Shown here: positions 905 through 59,643 of the stretch, one piece after another
How the letters are laid out: each line of letters begins with the position of its first letter
How positions within the stretch are numbered: the stretch's first letter is position 1
From: Escherichia coli
Lineage (GTDB): Bacteria; Pseudomonadota; Gammaproteobacteria; Enterobacterales; Enterobacteriaceae
Assembly: GCF_050920415.1 (NCBI RefSeq)
Contig: NZ_CP169309.1
Length of the DNA stretch: 64,000 nucleotides
Reading direction: 5' to 3' (one strand)
Notes under the pieces: model-generated
What the model saw: only the letters and a program-made list of their open reading frames with translations
Databases searched by the model: none
What the model was told of the DNA's origin: nothing
Translations under genes and position numbers: made by a program

Positions 905-2017
905 ATGACGGATAATCCGAATAAAAAAACATTCTGGGATAAAGTCCATCTCGATCCCACAATGCTGCTGATCTTACTGGCATTGCTGGTTTACAGCGCC
1001 CTGGTTATCTGGAGCGCCAGCGGTCAGGATATTGGCATGATGGAGCGTAAAATCGGCCAAATCGCGATGGGTCTGGTCATCATGGTGGTGATGGCGCAAA
1101 TTCCTCCACGCGTTTATGAAGGCTGGGCCCCCTATCTCTATATCATCTGTATTATTTTGCTGGTGGCGGTAGATGCTTTCGGTGCCATCTCTAAAGGTGC
1201 TCAACGCTGGCTGGACCTCGGTATTGTTCGTTTTCAGCCGTCGGAAATTGCCAAAATAGCCGTACCACTGATGGTTGCGCGCTTTATCAACCGCGACGTT
1301 TGCCCGCCATCGTTGAAGAACACTGGCATCGCGCTGGTGCTGATATTTATGCCCACGCTGCTGGTGGCTGCACAGCCTGACCTGGGAACATCAATCCTCG
1401 TTGCGCTTTCTGGTCTGTTTGTACTGTTCCTCTCTGGCCTTAGCTGGCGTCTGATTGGCGTCGCAGTAGTGCTGGTAGCGGCGTTCATTCCGATTCTGTG
1501 GTTCTTCCTGATGCATGATTACCAGCGCCAGCGCGTAATGATGCTCCTGGACCCGGAATCAGACCCACTCGGCGCGGGCTATCACATTATTCAGTCTAAA
1601 ATTGCTATTGGCTCCGGCGGATTACGCGGCAAAGGCTGGCTGCATGGCACTCAGTCACAACTTGAATTTCTACCCGAACGCCATACCGACTTTATCTTCG
1701 CGGTACTGGCGGAAGAGCTGGGATTAGTGGGCATTTTGATTCTGCTCGCTCTCTACATTCTGCTGATCATGCGCGGGCTGTGGATAGCCGCCAGAGCGCA
1801 AACCACCTTTGGTCGCGTCATGGCTGGCGGCTTAATGCTGATATTATTCGTTTATGTCTTCGTAAATATTGGTATGGTAAGCGGTATTCTGCCGGTTGTA
1901 GGGGTTCCGCTCCCACTGGTCAGTTATGGAGGATCGGCGCTAATTGTGCTGATGGCTGGGTTCGGGATTGTAATGTCAATCCACACCCACAGGAAAATGT
2001 TGTCGAAAAGCGTGTAA
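905..2017 (+). CDS. mrdB: SEDS-family peptidoglycan glycosyltransferase RodA
   Basis: 370-aa polytopic membrane ORF; sequence and synteny (after mrdA, before rlpA) match RodA. Confidence 0.95.
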
Positions 2018-2027
2018 GAGGTGCGCA

Positions 2028-3116
2028 ATGCGTAAGCAGTGGCTCGGGATCTGCATCGCGGCAGGAATGCTCGCGGCATGTACAAGCGATGATGGTCAGC
2101 AACAGACGGTAAGTGTACCGCAGCCTGCGGTATGTAACGGCCCCATAGTTGAAATTAGCGGGGCGGACCCGCGTTTCGAACCACTGAACGCGACGGCAAA
2201 TCAGGATTACCAGCGCGATGGTAAAAGCTACAAAATCGTGCAGGATCCGTCTCGATTTAGCCAGGCGGGACTGGCGGCAATCTATGATGCCGAACCAGGC
2301 AGTAACCTGACGGCCTCTGGCGAAGCTTTCGATCCGACACAGCTGACGGCGGCCCATCCAACGCTTCCGATCCCCAGCTACGCCAGAATCACTAACCTGG
2401 CTAACGGGCGAATGATCGTGGTGCGCATTAATGATCGCGGTCCTTATGGCAACGACCGCGTTATTTCGCTTTCTCGCGCAGCAGCTGACCGTCTTAACAC
2501 GTCAAACAACACCAAAGTTCGTATCGATCCGATTATTGTCGCCCAGGATGGTTCGCTTTCTGGTCCTGGTATGGCTTGTACCACAGTCGCCAAACAGACT
2601 TACGCCCTGCCTGCACCTCCCGATTTAAGCGGCGGCGCAGGAACAAGTTCAGTGTCTGGCCCGCAGGGTGACATTCTTCCGGTCAGTAATTCGACGCTAA
2701 AAAGCGAAGATCCGACTGGCGCGCCGGTAACCAGCAGCGGTTTCCTCGGCGCACCAACGACCTTAGCGCCTGGTGTTCTGGAAGGCAGCGAACCAACGCC
2801 TGCACCACAGCCCGTTGTTACAGCTCCCTCGACAACGCCTGCAACCTCGCCTGCAATGGTGACACCGCAAGCCGCCTCGCAAAGCGCTAGCGGCAACTTT
2901 ATGGTGCAAGTTGGGGCAGTAAGCGATCAGGCGCGTGCGCAACAGTACCAACAGCAACTGGGACAGAAGTTCGGCGTCCCCGGTCGCGTAACTCAAAATG
3001 GCGCGGTCTGGCGGATCCAGCTTGGCCCATTCGCCAGCAAAGCCGAAGCCAGTACCTTGCAGCAACGTTTGCAAACCGAAGCCCAATTGCAGTCATTTAT
3101 TACCACCGCGCAGTAG
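2028..3116 (+). CDS. rlpA: Rare lipoprotein A (lytic transglycosylase, C-terminal SPOR domain)
   Basis: 362-aa ORF with lipoprotein signal (..LAACTSD), Pro/Thr/Ala-rich linker and SPOR-like C-terminus; synteny. Confidence 0.93.
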   Translation: MRKQWLGICIAAGMLAACTSDDGQQQTVSVPQPAVCNGPIVEISGADPRFEPLNATANQDYQRDGKSYKIVQDPSRFSQAGLAAIYDAEPGSNLTASGEAFDPTQLTAAHPTLPIPSYARITNLANGRMIVVRINDRGPYGNDRVISLSRAAADRLNTSNNTKVRIDPIIVAQDGSLSGPGMACTTVAKQTYALPAPPDLSGGAGTSSVSGPQGDILPVSNSTLKSEDPTGAPVTSSGFLGAPTTLAPGVLEGSEPTPAPQPVVTAPSTTPATSPAMVTPQAASQSASGNFMVQVGAVSDQARAQQYQQQLGQKFGVPGRVTQNGAVWRIQLGPFASKAEASTLQQRLQTEAQLQSFITTAQ

Positions 3117-3255
3117 CGTAAAGCAGGCATCTGATGTGTCAATTTCTGTAAATGACGTTAACAAAGTCACGCGGAAAGTCAGATGCCTGCCGGTAGTGCA
3201 TTTGCTATAGTAGGGCACTTTTTTTAATTCCATCACGGATGTCGTAGTTCAGACC

Positions 3256-4467
3256 ATGAATACCATTTTTTCCGCTCGTATCATGAAGCGCCTGGCGCTC
3301 ACCACGGCTCTTTGCACAGCCTTTATCTCTGCTGCACATGCCGATGACCTGAATATCAAAACTATGATCCCGGGTGTACCGCAGATCGATGCGGAGTCCT
3401 ACATCCTGATTGACTATAACTCGGGCAAAGTGCTCGCCGAACAGAACGCAGATGTCCGCCGCGATCCTGCCAGTCTGACCAAAATGATGACCAGTTACGT
3501 TATCGGCCAGGCAATGAAAGCCGGTAAATTTAAAGAAACTGATTTAGTCACCATCGGCAACGACGCATGGGCCACCGGTAACCCGGTATTTAAAGGTTCT
3601 TCGCTGATGTTCCTCAAACCGGGCATGCAGGTTCCGGTTTCTCAGCTGATCCGCGGTATTAACCTGCAATCGGGTAACGATGCTTGCGTCGCCATGGCCG
3701 ATTTTGCCGCTGGTAGCCAGGACGCTTTTGTTGGCTTGATGAACAGCTACGTTAACGCACTGGGCCTGAAAAACACTCACTTCCAGACCGTGCACGGTCT
3801 CGACGCTGACGGTCAGTACAGCTCCGCGCGAGATATGGCGCTGATCGGCCAGGCGTTGATCCGTGACGTACCGAATGAATACTCGATCTATAAAGAAAAA
3901 GAATTTACGTTTAACGGTATTCGCCAGCTGAACCGTAACGGCCTGTTATGGGATAACAGCCTGAATGTCGACGGCATCAAAACCGGACACACTGACAAAG
4001 CAGGTTACAACCTTGTTGCTTCTGCGACTGAAGGCCAGATGCGCTTGATCTCTGCGGTGATGGGCGGACGTACTTTTAAAGGCCGTGAAGCCGAAAGTAA
4101 AAAACTGCTAACCTGGGGCTTCCGTTTCTTCGAAACCGTTAACCCACTGAAAGTAGGTAAAGAGTTCGCCTCTGAACCGGTTTGGTTTGGTGATTCTGAT
4201 CGCGCTTCGTTAGGTGTTGATAAAGACGTGTACCTGACCATTCCGCGTGGCCGCATGAAAGATCTGAAAGCCAGCTATGTGCTGAACAGCAGTGAATTGC
4301 ATGCGCCGCTGCAAAAGAATCAGGTCGTCGGTACTATCAACTTCCAGCTTGATGGCAAAACGATCGAACAACGCCCGCTGGTTGTGCTGCAAGAAATCCC
4401 GGAAGGCAACTTCTTCGGCAAAATCATTGATTACATTAAGTTAATGTTCCATCACTGGTTTGGTTAA
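3256..4467 (+). CDS. dacA: D-alanyl-D-alanine carboxypeptidase DacA (PBP5)
   Basis: 403-aa ORF with signal peptide and SxxK active-site motif (ASLTK); synteny. Confidence 0.95.
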
Positions 4468-53759: not shown

Positions 53760-56000
53760 ATGAACAAGAAGATTCATTCCCTGGCCTTGTTGGTCAATCT
53801 GGGGATTTATGGGGTAGCACAGGCACAAGAGCCAACCGATACTCCTGTTTCACATGACGATACCATCGTGGTCACCGCCGCCGAGCAGAACTTGCAGGCG
53901 CCTGGCGTTTCGACCATCACCGCAGATGAAATCCGCAAAAACCCGGTTGCCCGCGATGTGTCGGAGATCATCCGTACCATGCCAGGCGTTAACCTGACTG
54001 GTAACTCCACCAGTGGTCAGCGTGGTAATAACCGCCAGATTGATATTCGCGGCATGGGTCCGGAAAACACGCTGATTTTGATTGACGGTAAGCCTGTCAG
54101 CAGCCGTAACTCGGTGCGTCAGGGCTGGCGTGGCGAGCGTGATACCCGTGGTGATACCTCCTGGGTGCCGCCTGAAATGATTGAACGTATTGAAGTTCTG
54201 CGTGGTCCGGCAGCTGCGCGTTATGGCAACGGCGCGGCGGGCGGCGTGGTTAACATCATTACCAAAAAAGGCAGCGGCGAGTGGCACGGCTCATGGGATG
54301 CTTATTTCAATGCGCCAGAGCATAAAGAGGAAGGTGCCACCAAACGCACCAACTTCAGCTTGACCGGTCCGCTGGGCGACCAATTCAGCTTCCGTTTATA
54401 TGGCAACCTCGACAAAACTCAGGCTGATGCGTGGGATATTAACCAGGGCCATCAGTCAGCGCGTGCCGGAACGTATGCCACGACGTTACCAGCCGGGCGC
54501 GAAGGGGTGATCAACAAAGATATCAATGGCGTGGTGCGTTGGGACTTCGCCCCTATGCAGTCACTCGAACTTGAAGCGGGCTACAGCCGCCAGGGTAACC
54601 TGTATGCGGGTGACACCCAGAACACCAACTCTGACGCTTACACTCGCTCTAAATATGGCGATGAAACCAACCGCCTGTATCGCCAGAACTACTCGCTGAC
54701 CTGGAACGGTGGCTGGGATAACGGCGTGACCACCAGCAACTGGGTGCAGTACGAACACACCCGTAACTCGCGTATTCCGGAAGGCCTGGCGGGCGGCACC
54801 GAAGGGAAATTTAACGAAAAAGCGACACAAGATTTCGTCGATATCGATCTTGATGACGTGATGTTGCACAGCGAAGTTAACCTGCCGATTGATTTCCTCG
54901 TTAACCAGACGCTGACGCTGGGGACCGAGTGGAATCAGCAGCGGATGAAGGACTTAAGTTCCAACACCCAGGCGCTGACCGGAACGAATACCGGCGGTGC
55001 TATTGATGGTGTAAGTGCCACTGACCGTAGCCCATATTCAAAGGCAGAAATTTTCTCGCTATTTGCCGAAAACAACATGGAGCTGACTGACAGCACCATC
55101 GTAACGCCGGGGCTGCGTTTCGATCATCACAGCATTGTTGGCAATAACTGGAGTCCGGCGCTGAATATATCGCAAGGTTTAGGCGATGACTTCACGCTGA
55201 AAATGGGCATCGCCCGTGCTTATAAAGCGCCGAGCCTGTACCAGACTAACCCGAACTACATTCTCTACAGTAAAGGTCAGGGCTGCTATGCCAGCGCGGG
55301 CGGCTGCTATTTGCAAGGTAATGATGACCTGAAAGCAGAAACCAGCATCAACAAAGAGATTGGTCTGGAGTTCAAACGCGACGGCTGGCTGGCGGGTGTC
55401 ACCTGGTTCCGTAACGATTATCGCAATAAGATTGAAGCGGGCTATGTGGCTGTAGGGCAAAACGCAGTCGGCACCGATCTCTATCAGTGGGATAACGTGC
55501 CGAAAGCGGTGGTTGAAGGTCTGGAAGGATCGTTAAACGTACCGGTTAGCGAAACGGTGATGTGGACCAACAACATCACTTATATGCTGAAGAGTGAAAA
55601 CAAAACCACGGGCGACCGTTTGTCGATCATCCCGGAGTATACGTTGAACTCAACGCTGAGCTGGCAGGCACGGGAAGATTTGTCGATGCAAACGACCTTC
55701 ACCTGGTACGGCAAGCAGCAGCCGAAGAAGTACAACTATAAAGGCCAGCCAGCGGTTGGACCGGAAACCAAAGAAATCAGTCCGTACAGCATTGTGGGCC
55801 TGAGCGCGACCTGGGATGTGACGAAGAATGTCAGTCTGACCGGCGGCGTGGACAACCTGTTCGACAAGCGTTTGTGGCGTGCGGGTAATGCCCAGACCAC
55901 GGGCGATCTGGCAGGAGCCAACTATATCGCCGGTGCCGGGGCGTATACCTATAACGAGCCGGGACGTACATGGTATATGAGCATTAATACGCACTTCTGA
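53760..56000 (+). CDS. fepA: TonB-dependent ferric enterobactin outer-membrane receptor FepA
   Basis: 746-aa ORF from MNKKIHSLALLVNLG (signal peptide), TonB box DTIVVTA, terminal aromatic residue. Confidence 0.96.
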   Translation: MNKKIHSLALLVNLGIYGVAQAQEPTDTPVSHDDTIVVTAAEQNLQAPGVSTITADEIRKNPVARDVSEIIRTMPGVNLTGNSTSGQRGNNRQIDIRGMGPENTLILIDGKPVSSRNSVRQGWRGERDTRGDTSWVPPEMIERIEVLRGPAAARYGNGAAGGVVNIITKKGSGEWHGSWDAYFNAPEHKEEGATKRTNFSLTGPLGDQFSFRLYGNLDKTQADAWDINQGHQSARAGTYATTLPAGREGVINKDINGVVRWDFAPMQSLELEAGYSRQGNLYAGDTQNTNSDAYTRSKYGDETNRLYRQNYSLTWNGGWDNGVTTSNWVQYEHTRNSRIPEGLAGGTEGKFNEKATQDFVDIDLDDVMLHSEVNLPIDFLVNQTLTLGTEWNQQRMKDLSSNTQALTGTNTGGAIDGVSATDRSPYSKAEIFSLFAENNMELTDSTIVTPGLRFDHHSIVGNNWSPALNISQGLGDDFTLKMGIARAYKAPSLYQTNPNYILYSKGQGCYASAGGCYLQGNDDLKAETSINKEIGLEFKRDGWLAGVTWFRNDYRNKIEAGYVAVGQNAVGTDLYQWDNVPKAVVEGLEGSLNVPVSETVMWTNNITYMLKSENKTTGDRLSIIPEYTLNSTLSWQAREDLSMQTTFTWYGKQQPKKYNYKGQPAVGPETKEISPYSIVGLSATWDVTKNVSLTGGVDNLFDKRLWRAGNAQTTGDLAGANYIAGAGAYTYNEPGRTWYMSINTHF

Positions 56001-56037
56001 TGCTAACGTCAGATTGTTGACAAAGTGCGCGTCGTTC

Positions 56038-56140
56038 ATGCCGGATGCGGCGTGAACGCCTTATCCGGCCTACAAAAATCTTGCCAATTCAATATATTGC
56101 AGGATAGTGTAGGCCTGATAAGCGTAGCGCATCAGGCAGT
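56038..56140. repeat. BIME (two REP palindromes) between fepA and entD
   Basis: tgccggatgcggcgtgaacgccttatccggcctac and gtaggcctgataagcgtagcgcatcaggca in opposite orientation. Confidence 0.75.
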
Positions 56141-56165
56141 TTTGCGTTTGTCATCAGTCTCTAAT

Positions 56166-56795
56166 ATGGTCGACATGAAAACTACGCATACCTCCCTCCC
56201 CTTTGCCGGACATACGCTGCATTTTGTTGAGTTCGATCCAGTAAGTTTTCGCGAGCAGGATTTACTCTGGCTGCCACACTACGCACAACTGCAACACGCT
56301 GGACGTAAACGTAAAACAGAGCATTTAGCCGGACGGATCGCTGCTGTTTACGCCTTGCGGGAATATGGCTATAAATGTGTGCCCGCAATCGGCGAGCTAC
56401 GCCAACCTGTGTGGCCTGCGGAGGTATACGGCAGTATTAGCCACTGCGAGACTACGGCATTAGCCGTGGCATCTCGTCAACCGATTGGCATTGATATCGA
56501 AGAGATTTTCTCTGTACAAACCGCAAGAGAATTGACAGACAACATTATTACACCAGCAGAACACGAGCGACTCGCAGAATGCGGTTTAGCCTTTTCTCTG
56601 GCGCTGACACTGGCATTTTCCGCCAAAGAGAGCGCATTTAAGGCAAGTGAGATCCAAACTGATGCAGGTTTTCTGGACTATCAGATAATTAGCTGGAATA
56701 AACAGCAGATCATCATTCGACTAGAGGATGAGCAGTTTGCTGTGCACTGGCAGATAAAAGAAAAAATAGTCATAACGCTGTGCCAACACGATTAA
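56166..56795 (+). CDS. entD: Enterobactin synthase 4'-phosphopantetheinyl transferase EntD
   Basis: 209-aa ORF from MVDMKTTHTSLPF; PPTase family; the ORF-track start upstream lies inside the BIME. Confidence 0.92.
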   Translation: MVDMKTTHTSLPFAGHTLHFVEFDPVSFREQDLLWLPHYAQLQHAGRKRKTEHLAGRIAAVYALREYGYKCVPAIGELRQPVWPAEVYGSISHCETTALAVASRQPIGIDIEEIFSVQTARELTDNIITPAEHERLAECGLAFSLALTLAFSAKESAFKASEIQTDAGFLDYQIISWNKQQIIIRLEDEQFAVHWQIKEKIVITLCQHD

Positions 56796-56916
56796 TTGAC
56801 AACATCTGGTACGATTCGCCCGCAGCCATCACTGACCACGGGCGAAAGTGTAAAGCAGGTGCCTTACCATCCTGACCTGACAACCGGATATGCGGGGATT
56901 ACTCCCCGCACAACGG

Positions 56917-57069
56917 CTACTTCTTCGGTTCGTAAGCGAGAACAGCCCTGAACTCAATATTACGTTCCTTTACGGTGAACTCACACAGCGAGTCGCCGAC
57001 CAGAAGCGTAAATCCCAGCACTGTCAAACACAGCACTATGACCGCCACAAGGGCATATTTCGTCAGCAT
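56917..57069 (-). CDS. hokE: Hok-family toxin, copy 1 ([50 protein letters not shown])
   Basis: 50-aa single-TM peptide; in this copy the upstream mok-like frame is fused in-frame (ORF 56917-57213) through a 1-nt length difference. Confidence 0.85.
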
Positions 57070-57418
57070 GTTTATATTGCCTCCATGCGAAGAAGGGACT
57101 ACCATCCAAATTGTCTGGTTTGGAGTGGCGGCCCCAGGGTTGATAGAAATATCTCCTGGGGCTTCATCTTTCCAGACCTCAGAGTTAACCTGAAACCGGA
57201 AAGCTTCAGGCACCCGCCGTTATCTTACCCTTCCTTAGCAAAATGGCTGTTTATTTATACAGTAAATCCTGTTCCGGACTTTTCATTAGTATTATCGCCC
57301 ATGCCAGTTAAACGACATCGCCCGCAGCCATCACTGACCACGGGCGAAAATGTAAAGCAGGTGCCTTACCACCCTGAACTGACAACCGGATATGCGGGGA
57401 TTACTCCCCGCACAACGG

Positions 57419-57571
57419 CTACTTCTTCGGTTCGTAAGCGAGAACAGCCCTGAACTCAATATTATGTTCCTTTACGGTGAACTCACACAGCGAGTCGCCG
57501 ACCAGAAGCGTAAATCCCAGCACTGTCAAACACAGCACTATGACCGCCACAAGGGCATATTTCGTCAGCAT
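57419..57571 (-). CDS. hokE: Hok-family toxin, copy 2 (..[18 protein letters not shown])
   Basis: 50-aa Hok ORF; one substitution (R35H) relative to copy 1. Confidence 0.85.
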
Positions 57572-57716
57572 GTTTATATTGCCTCCATGCGAAGAAGGGA
57601 CTACCATCCGAGTTGTTGAGGTTCGGAGTGGCAGCCCCAGGGTTGATAGAAATATCTCCTGGGGCTTCATCTTTCCAGACCTCAGAGTAAACCTGAAACC
57701 GGAAAGCTTCAGGCAC
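57483..57716 (-). CDS. mok-like overlapping reading frame, copy 2
   Basis: 77-codon [12 protein letters not shown].. starting 145 nt upstream of hok and ending inside it in a different frame; mok-like arrangement. Confidence 0.45.
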
Positions 57717-57921
57717 CCGCCGTTATCTTACCCTTCCTTAGCAAAATGGCTGTTTATTTATACAGTGAGTCCTGTTTCGGACTTCTGTTGGCAAAACTGA
57801 TCATTGCTCTTAAAACGACATCGCCCGCAGCCATCACTGACCGCGGGCGAAAGTGTAAAGCAGGTGCCTTACCATCCTGACCTGACAACCGGATATGCGG
57901 GGATTACTCCCCGCACAACGG

Positions 57922-58074
57922 CTACTTCTTCGGTTCGTAAGCGAGAACAGCCTTAAACTCAATATTACGTTCCTTCACCGTAAACTCACACAGCGAGTCT
58001 CCGACCAGAACCGTAAATCCCAGCACCGTCAAACACAGCACTATGACTGCCACAAGGGCATATTTCGTCAGCAT
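57922..58074 (-). CDS. hokE: Hok-family toxin, copy 3 (..[32 protein letters not shown]), adjacent to ybdK
   Basis: 50-aa Hok ORF closest to ybdK. Confidence 0.88.
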
Positions 58075-58219
58075 GTTTATATTGCCTCCATGCGAAGAAG
58101 GGACTACCATCCAAATTGTTTGGGTTTGGAGTGGCAGCCCCAGGGTTGATAGAAATATCTCCTGGGGCTTCATCTTTCCAGACCTCAGAGTAAACCTGAA
58201 ACCGGAAAGCTTCAGGCAC
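57986..58219 (-). CDS. mok-like overlapping reading frame, copy 3
   Basis: 77-codon ORF paralogous to 57483-57716. Confidence 0.45.
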
Positions 58220-58515
58220 CCGCCGTTATCTTACCCTTCCTCAACAAAATAGCTGTTTATTTATACAGTTAGTCTTATTTCGGACTTCTCACTACGCATC
58301 AGATCAACCGAAACTAAACCAATTTTTCCTTCGCCCCTCAATCGTCAAAATTCTCCGCCGCCAGCCAGCTCTGCCATAACTTGGCACATTGCAAAAGTAG
58401 CCAAATTGCTTCAGTAGCAATCAGTTCACCATCACCAAAAAAAGAAACATTCCAGAACTTCCGCATCTCTCCCGGCCGCTCCCACTTCTATACTCAAATG
58501 AAAACGCCAACATAA

Positions 58516-59643
<1,128 letters not shown>

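Follow-up and report, generated by a model that had tools for sequence, protein, structure and literature searches.

The closest described relatives of the locus studied here are the hok/mok/sok system of plasmid R1 and the hok loci of the Escherichia coli K-12 chromosome. In R1, the hok mRNA is held by a lock between its tac and fbi elements (PMC9841398; PMC1635323), and the antisense RNA, Sok, recognises the loop of the refolded mRNA with an 11-nt tail (PMC1635323). The R1 mok reading frame, which is out of frame with hok, begins 7 nt after a GAGG Shine-Dalgarno (SD) sequence and is overlapped by the 5' end of Sok, an arrangement that hokE does not share. On the K-12 chromosome, the leader open reading frame (ORF) of mokC/hokC (hokC is also called gef) is in frame with hokC and uses the same stop codon, while mokB is out of frame with hokB; the frame relation between leader and toxin thus does not define the family. 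The starts of both mokC and mokB are overlapped by the 5' ends of their Sok RNAs (by 9–11 nt). The K-12 annotation lists mokB and mokC in these two frame relations and has no mokE.

A recent survey of Hok genes described the identification of Mok as "not trivial" and placed 10% of Hok genes in islets of 2–6 homologues that lie less than 2 kb apart and arose via local duplication (bioRxiv 10.1101/2025.08.07.668861). For hokE in particular, the same preprint reports TadA editing and toxicity of the over-expressed coding sequence, and hokE/sokE has been counted among the SOS-induced type I systems (PMC11951105). A literature search on mokE, on hokE in connection with IS186 and hokC, and on ribosome profiling of hokE returned nothing usable.

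The window analysed here, a 64,000-nt stretch of an E. coli genome (contig NZ_CP169309.1), carries a hokE/sokE array between entD and ybdK, the site that hokE/sokE (b4415/b4835) also occupies in K-12. The leader, the SokE promoter and terminator, and the LexA box are the same as in K-12, and the Hok proteins differ from K-12 HokE by 2–4 residues. K-12, however, has a single copy in which IS186 lies 18 nt after the hokE stop codon, with loss of the 3' UTR and fbi, whereas the window has three intact units. These form one of the islets described in the preprint cited above, which contains no analysis of mok or Sok. The first of these copies (copy 1) differs by one nucleotide in length from the other two within its leader, and it is the meaning of this difference that we address.

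Methods

Units were delimited by alignment. Tandem Repeats Finder, applied to positions 56000–59500, returned no repeat because the ∼503-bp period of the array exceeds the 500 limit of the program. For cross-genus comparison, 53 HokE-like loci (70–100% protein identity, at least 12 genera) were fetched and 49 leaders were aligned; the RNAalifold set (n = 44) consisted of 41 of these 49 leaders and the three copies in the window. Promoters were located by homology, conservation, and published SELEX data. Allele frequencies are exact-allele counts in a set of 5426 genomes, together with one spread sample of 40 rows.

Results

According to the RefSeq annotation, the order of genes at the locus is entD, three minus-strand hokE genes, and ybdK. 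The region matches the chromosome of E. coli strain MFDS1022581 with 100% identity. Each hokE gene, together with its antisense gene, makes up a type I toxin–antitoxin unit (hokE/sokE), and the three units follow one another in tandem at a spacing of ∼503 bp, with a column-wise identity of 94% in the alignment. The copy 1 toxin gene (56917–57069, minus strand; RefSeq hokE, WP_000956467.1) is intact and encodes 50 amino acids, with a PF01848 (Hok/Gef) score of 31 bits (cut-off, 22); all three products are small hydrophobic proteins of the Hok/Gef toxin family, scoring between 29.9 and 32.3 bits against that cut-off. Copy 2 (57419–57718, minus strand) comprises hok at 57419–57571, a predicted mRNA start at 57718, and a predicted SokE on the plus strand at 57615–57674; the corresponding positions for copy 3 (57922–58221, minus strand) are 57922–58074, 58221, and 58118–58177. 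The Tyr46 codon of copy 1 (UAC, 56934–56932, minus strand) lies in a UACG context, and TadA editing has been reported for hokE (bioRxiv 10.1101/2025.08.07.668861). Upstream of copy 1 is a LexA (SOS) box, CTGTATAAATAAACAG (57247–57262, minus strand), and identical boxes are found at 57750–57765 and 58253–58268. All three leaders have the structure described by the Rfam model RF01794 (81.8–85.4 bits, gathering score 59). Despite its name, "sok", this model matches the hok-sense leader and not the antisense RNA.

We compared the upstream regions of the homologous loci. Across ∼50 loci, which represent at least 12 genera, a TAnnAT hexamer lies exactly 6 nt 5' of an invariant GGGTGC, and the sequence further 5' of the hexamer has diverged across genera. 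Among 39 Escherichia units, diversity was zero in both the −10 hexamer and the first 12 transcribed nucleotides, as compared with 0.104 in the 6 nt between them. The same geometry is seen in hokC, and the RF01794 model begins at the same point. On this pattern of conservation, we placed the start of the copy 1 hok mRNA at G57215, with the −10 element TAAGAT at 57227–57222; the segment 57209–57227 (minus strand) would accordingly comprise the −10 element, a 6-nt discriminator, and the predicted mRNA start GGGUGCC, which is the 5' tac element. We infer this start from the conservation, from homology to the geometry of R1 and hokC, and from the complementarity between the mRNA 5' and 3' ends. A scan for consensus sigma-70 promoters found no site at a threshold of 9 of 12 matches; the SokE promoter described below scores 8 of 12. 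We also considered the motif TGTATAAAT as the hok −10, in combination with a 5'–3' pairing of CAGCCAU with AUGGCUG. This candidate was rejected because the motif is the LexA box, because the cross-genus alignment sets the −10 element 6 nt 5' of GGGTGC, and because AUGGCUG sits within the terminal hairpin. The TGTATAAAT motif could nevertheless act as an alternative −10 some 45 nt further upstream.

Folding of the full-length copy 1 mRNA (57215 to 56812) predicted a closing helix in which the 5' end, GGGUGCCU, pairs with AGGCACC(U) of the 3' UTR. This helix appears in the minimum-free-energy structure and in the centroid structure alike (copy 1, z = −7.45; copy 3, z = −5.94). The 3' partner is the fbi-like element AGGCACCUGC (56855–56864, minus strand), and the predicted closed mRNA thus has the tac/fbi closing helix of R1. 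Two further features are held in common with R1: a ucb-like pairing of the 5' end with GCCCC, which was invariant (5' GGG.GC; RNAalifold, n = 44), and a hairpin formed by the SD homologue and dcb, which is the Sok target. In the same RNAalifold analysis, hairpin 1 of the leader showed double compensatory changes at two pairs in 12–14 sequences. Most genera have GAGGC:GUCUC as the outer stem of hairpin 3, where Escherichia has GGGGC:GUCCC; this stem showed A-U to G-C double changes in 11 sequences, and the inner stem of the hairpin showed 19 and 7 double changes. Within the array, copy 2 differs from copies 1 and 3 by a compensatory change of A:U to G:C in the inner stem. The LexA box, −10 element, tac, fbi, SokE promoter and terminator, and hok SD are identical across the three copies.

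The K-12 sokE annotation corresponds to the complement of AAAGAUGAAGCCCC...CCCGAAC. It maps to a homologous 60 nt, which in copy 1 gives a predicted SokE of 59 nt on the plus strand (57113–57171). The predicted fold, like that of R1 Sok, has a single-stranded 5' tail (here 10 nt), a long hairpin, and a U-rich tail, and in both systems the antisense promoter overlaps the hok translation start region. In copy 1, this promoter, TTGCCT-17-TACCAT (57077–57105, plus strand), overlaps the hok SD of the other strand; the same motif occurs at 57579–57607 and 58082–58110. An RpoD holoenzyme SELEX table lists the motif at the ybdK/sokE spacer and assigns it to ybdK (PMC3946193). Since sokE lies on the same strand as ybdK, we read the listed motif as the likely sokE promoter. 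Every difference among the three SokE RNAs falls within nt 1–19, the indel being at nt 3–5.

Reading the three units directly and in alignment bore out the length difference that the sequence-only reading had reported. Between the plus-strand anchors ACCATCC and CCAGGGTTGATAG, copy 1 has 26 nt (aaattgtctggtttggagtggcggcc, 57108–57133), whereas copies 2 and 3 have 27 (57610–57636 and 58113–58139), the three anchors lying at 57134, 57637, and 58140. On the minus strand, the copy 1 segment makes up the 5' strand of hairpin 3 together with its apical loop, and the 5' tail of SokE is complementary to it. It is in this loop, between the covarying pairs of the inner stem, that the indel column is found, such that the loop has 8 nt in copy 1 (mRNA nt 98–105, 57118–57111) versus 9 nt in copy 3.

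That the missing nucleotide might be a sequencing error in a repeat had been raised at the outset, and its position within a tandem repeat and next to a short C run gives some reason for suspicion. However, 14 complete E. coli genomes contain the exact copy 1 69-mer, and direct reading of six independent assemblies, which come from the USA, China, France, and Thailand, showed the same allele. A sister 26-nt allele differing by one base is found exactly in 660 records, O157:H7 among them, and E. whittamii also has a 26-nt allele. A sequencing or assembly error is thus refuted as an explanation, and we give it practically no weight. That hok loci of other genomes share the 26-nt form goes part of the way to the refutation that the sequence-only reading had set for itself. 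Taken together, exact 26-nt alleles (14 + 660) occur in ∼12% of complete genomes. The K-12 27-nt allele, which differs from that of copy 3 by one base, has exact matches in 2113 records, and another 27-nt allele, which contains an in-frame TGA, is exact in 44 genomes; K-12 itself does not have the 26-nt allele carried by copy 1.

The segment holding the indel is the most variable transcribed part of the hokE unit. Its diversity among the 39 Escherichia units was 0.151 per site versus 0.013–0.037 in neighbouring parts (0.013 in the SokE promoter and hok translation start region, 0.022–0.036 in hairpins 1 and 2, and 0.037 in the hok coding sequence). Among genera as well, the length of the segment and loop shifts by 1–2 nt. 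The indel thus appears, from these comparisons, to fall in the single part of the unit where change is tolerated or favoured.

An alternative is that copy 1 is a decaying, non-functional duplicate in which the indel is one degenerative lesion. Its terminal hairpin lacks the T-run that follows those of copies 2 and 3, and the chromosomal hok loci tested so far have shown no post-segregational killing (bioRxiv 10.1101/2025.08.07.668861). We nonetheless regard decay as very improbable, since the Hok ORF is intact, its product (WP_000956467.1) is common to hokE in several other assemblies, none of the shared elements listed above, from the LexA box to the hok SD, departs from the other copies, and hundreds of genomes, that of O157:H7 among them, carry the 26-nt form at one hokE copy.

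The principal claim of the sequence-only reading concerned the coding consequence of the indel, namely that a mok-like frame opening with GTG runs into hok in copy 1 and could yield an N-terminally extended toxin. Its description of the frames is accurate. The GTG ORF of copy 1 (56917–57213, minus strand; GTG at 57213–57211), which comes from a mechanical ORF listing, is 98 aa long and in frame with hok, and its counterparts in copies 2 and 3 (57483–57716 and 57986–58219, minus strand) are 77 aa long and end inside hok in another frame. Such a shift needs no statistics, because any 1-nt indel 5' of an open frame brings one of the upstream frames into register. In fact, all three frame relations are present among the 39 Escherichia units, and Hok is intact throughout.

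The biological interpretation fared less well. With the mRNA starting at G57215, the GTG constitutes mRNA nt 3–5. It has no SD, even under the alternative upstream −10 at TGTATAAAT, and it belongs to the invariant tac element, predicted to be paired in both the closed and open conformations. Across genera, the ORF that it opens is merely 5–9 codons long in 29 of 49 loci. The copy 1 ORF shares the hok stop codon as mokC does with hokC, but the GTG is separated from the annotated SokE footprint by more than 40 nt and lacks the overlap with the Sok 5' end that characterises the mokC and mokB starts. The label "mok-like" is thus not supported, and the GTG ORF is probably not mok.

As for the extended toxin, the 98-aa ORF exists and contains the whole Hok domain (residues 53–94), and gene callers have deposited such proteins: public databases contain a cluster of 59 of these sequences under the name "Hok/Gef family protein", and one member occurs on 208 contigs. 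The RefSeq annotation at copy 1, on the other hand, is the 50-aa hokE only. A start codon at the extreme 5' end of the mRNA, sequestered in tac and opening an ORF that is not conserved, most likely does not direct translation of the 98-aa ORF, and we consider a fused, N-terminally extended toxin extremely unlikely. In all likelihood, the "Mok–Hok fusion" is a by-product of frame counting.

If the GTG ORF is not mok, the question arises whether another leader ORF takes that role. In R1, hokB, and hokC, the GAGG SD that precedes the mok start lies at the foot of hairpin 3. At this canonical mok position, E. coli hokE has GGGG for the GAGG of R1, with the partner changed in compensation from UCUC to UCCC, and there is no ATG, GTG, or TTG; hokE of E. 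coli therefore has no mok start at the place where R1 has one. A canonical AUG at this position was found in 8 of 49 loci, from Klebsiella, Kluyvera, and Enterobacter, and these 8 loci include both in-frame (67 aa) and out-of-frame forms (18 aa, with a stop overlapping the hok AUG).

Two other AUG codons in the leader were considered. The first, AUG(A), at mRNA nt 49–51, is the sole AUG of the leader that is preceded by an SD (GAGG, 57180–57177, 9 nt upstream). In copy 1, its ORF (57099–57167, minus strand) has 22 codons and ends at a TAG (57101–57099) 14 nt before the hok SD (57084–57080), whereas in copy 2 (57670), copy 3 (58173), and K-12, AUG(A) is in frame through hok, giving 83 aa. AUG(A) is overlapped by the 3' end of annotated K-12 SokE; like the GTG, it lacks the mokC/mokB geometry, in which it is the Sok 5' end that overlaps. 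The second, AUG(B) (GGAUGGUAG), is in frame and 12 codons 5' of hok. We rejected it as a coupler because it has no SD and is AUA in seven loci; it is also the complement of TACCAT, the SokE −10 box, and we judge its conservation to be explained by the SokE promoter.

Relative to the AUG(A) ORF, the picture first drawn for the three copies is inverted: it is in copy 1 that the leader frame is truncated, and in copies 2 and 3 that it is in frame with hok. The suggestion that the indel alters translational coupling would then, if there is any such effect, apply via the AUG(A) ORF and in the direction opposite to that proposed. Because AUG(A) has an SD and is invariant in Escherichia hokE, the indel could still have a coding consequence, and the strongest competitor to a neutral reading is that it acts as a toggle on a real leader ORF, specific to Escherichia and standing in for the canonical mok that has been lost. 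In 27-nt alleles, ribosomes from AUG(A) would read through the hok SD and AUG, resulting in coupling or in an 83-aa extended Hok; in 26-nt alleles, they would stop at the UAG, and copy 1 would be poorly coupled, silent, or coupled by termination and re-initiation. Premature mok stops 5' of the hok start abolish toxicity in R1 (PMC9841398), so if the AUG(A) ORF is the coupler, weaker Hok translation would be expected from copy 1.

Several observations are consistent with such a toggle. AUG(A) has the only canonical SD of the leader, at a 9-nt spacing, and this is invariant in 39 Escherichia units; the 3' end of annotated K-12 SokE overlaps it; mokC/hokC of K-12 is a precedent for an in-frame mok; and both the SD and the AUG of the canonical mok are gone from E. 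coli hokE. However, neither the frame nor the length of the ORF is kept in the Escherichia loci sampled (83, 22, 17 [with an in-frame TGA], and 62 aa), the encoded peptide varies freely between copies, and the 26-nt alleles that would truncate it are as frequent as reported above. AUG(A) and its SD also lie inside hairpin 1, a very stable and covariation-supported structure, in every predicted conformation, and since both are embedded there, their conservation can be explained by structure alone. Outside Escherichia, the position is mostly GACG or GACA, and where AUGs do occur at it, they open ORFs that end ∼43 nt before hok. We thus consider the toggle unlikely, though the most probable of the alternatives.

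Discussion

Our analysis suggests that copy 1 is probably a complete, ordinary hokE/sokE unit, that its 1-nt difference is a common natural indel in a hypervariable segment, and that the 98-aa fusion is no real product. The anatomy of such a unit is laid out at this locus, and its operation may be reconstructed from that of R1 hok/sok. The promoter adjoining the LexA box would give rise to a ∼400-nt hok mRNA starting with GGGUGCC, and pairing of its 5' end with fbi in the 3' UTR would hold the full-length mRNA closed. Trimming at the 3' end would allow the 5' end to re-pair with GCCCC, freeing the GGGGC...GUCCC hairpin (hairpin 3). SokE, ∼60 nt long and expressed from the TTGCCT-17-TACCAT promoter, would recognise the loop of hairpin 3 through its single-stranded 5' tail, and the resulting SokE/hok duplex would block translation and lead to cleavage.

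On this model, the indel changes the loop of hairpin 3 and the SokE tail at once: because SokE is encoded in cis, every copy is still perfectly matched to its own target. Duplexes between non-cognate tails and targets are predicted to be ∼6–21 kcal/mol weaker, which would suit a role for the variable tails in conferring specificity and insulating the copies from one another. Since the predicted cross-pairing energies of cognate and non-cognate SokE/target pairs nevertheless show only modest differences, we can do no more than infer such a role. The only effect of the indel that the model predicts would be small differences in the cross-pairing of the three SokE RNAs with each other's targets.

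A more speculative scheme would join this insulation to the leader ORF. Having no canonical mok (GAGG to GGGG), hokE may rely on the Escherichia-specific AUG under the 3' end of SokE, with loop indels switching it between the 83-aa in-frame and 22-codon states; tandem copies would then differ heritably in coupling, with their diverged SokE tails partly insulating them. We regard this scheme as doubtful, and somewhat more so than the toggle of AUG(A) by itself.

The 1-nt difference is a common natural variant of the known E. coli hokE/sokE system, and as such is already known. Its biological weight is small, in that the system is known, the tandem array is of a described kind, and the allele is common. 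Two lessons for annotation may be of wider use. Mechanical ORFs over hok leaders (98, 83, 77, and 62 aa) are present in databases as "Hok/Gef family protein" and should not be taken for Mok–Hok fusions, and the Rfam family "sok" should be read as matching the hok-sense leader. For specialists, the point of possible interest is that, in this clade of Hok, most loci lack a canonical mok start.

Results and Discussion

A perfect LexA box (CTGTATAAATAAACAG) was found at all three hokE copies (57247-57262, 57750-57765 and 58253-58268), lying in each case ∼32–47 nt upstream of where the hokE mRNA is predicted to begin. Because every copy carries such a box and hokE/sokE is listed among the SOS-induced type I systems (PMC11951105), all three copies are probably under SOS regulation. 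Alignment of the copies showed that the Tyr46 codon UAC, in its UACG context, is also kept in 3 of 3 (minus strand; 56932-56934, 57434-57436 and 57937-57939 for copies 1 to 3). A-to-I editing by TadA, which changes this Tyr to Cys46, has been reported for hokE mRNA as it has for hokB (bioRxiv 10.1101/2025.08.07.668861).

At its 3′ end each unit has a strong terminal hairpin (UCGCCCG.GGUCAGUGAUGGCUGCGGGCGA; 56816-56845 in copy 1, 57318-57347 in copy 2 and 57821-57850 in copy 3). A T-rich run follows this hairpin in copies 2 and 3; copy 1, whose hairpin adjoins the 3′ end of entD, lacks such a run, and it is conceivable that transcription reads through from copy 1 antisense to entD. Separately, a match to the ES036 (CssrF) sRNA (Rfam, 44.4 bits; gathering score, 37.6) was located on the plus strand at 56075-56116, in either the fepA-entD intergenic region or the 5′ region of entD.

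The hokE locus is a repeated target of insertion sequences, as seen in K-12 and Ec-U4. In K-12, IS186 lies 18 nt past the hokE stop codon (2508-3852 of that locus), and E. coli Ec-U4 has IS150 within the hokE leader, where it replaces hairpins 1 and 2, together with an IS421-family element just downstream (106-2913 of that locus). In E. coli Ecol_AZ159, an SDR-family oxidoreductase gene (1854-3069 of that locus) adjoins the hokE array in place of entD; the flank of the array therefore varies across E. coli.

Across genera, most non-Escherichia relatives among the HokE-like loci compared (L023-L069) have a 12-codon ORF that opens at the AUG of GGAUGUUAG, at about nt 108-114 of the leader, and closes at a UGA overlapping the hok start (AUGCUGA). 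The Escherichia leaders have 4 additional nt, which bring this AUG into the hok frame and give the 62-aa forms found in databases. Since these bases are at the same time complementary to the SokE -10 box, the meaning of the AUG is ambiguous.

RefSeq places pseudo "hypothetical protein" CDSs antisense to the hok leaders on the plus strand, at about 57038-57311 and 58043-58272 (639-912 and 1644-1873 in the coordinates of locus L001), flagged as "frameshifted" or "internal stop"; some strains have an intact form of about 89 aa in their annotation (WP_135528161.1, WP_071550428.1). These CDSs look like spurious ORFs, and their "frameshifts" probably stem from the same indels of the hok leader. The Rfam family RF01794, named "sok antitoxin (CssrC)", matches the minus strand at 57061-57215, 57563-57718 and 58066-58221, and covers nt 1-155 of the hok leader mRNA, to the hok start codon, on the hok-sense strand; in the hokE units it gave no match to the ∼60-nt antisense SokE on the plus strand. 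The name of this family is a potential source of wrong annotation.
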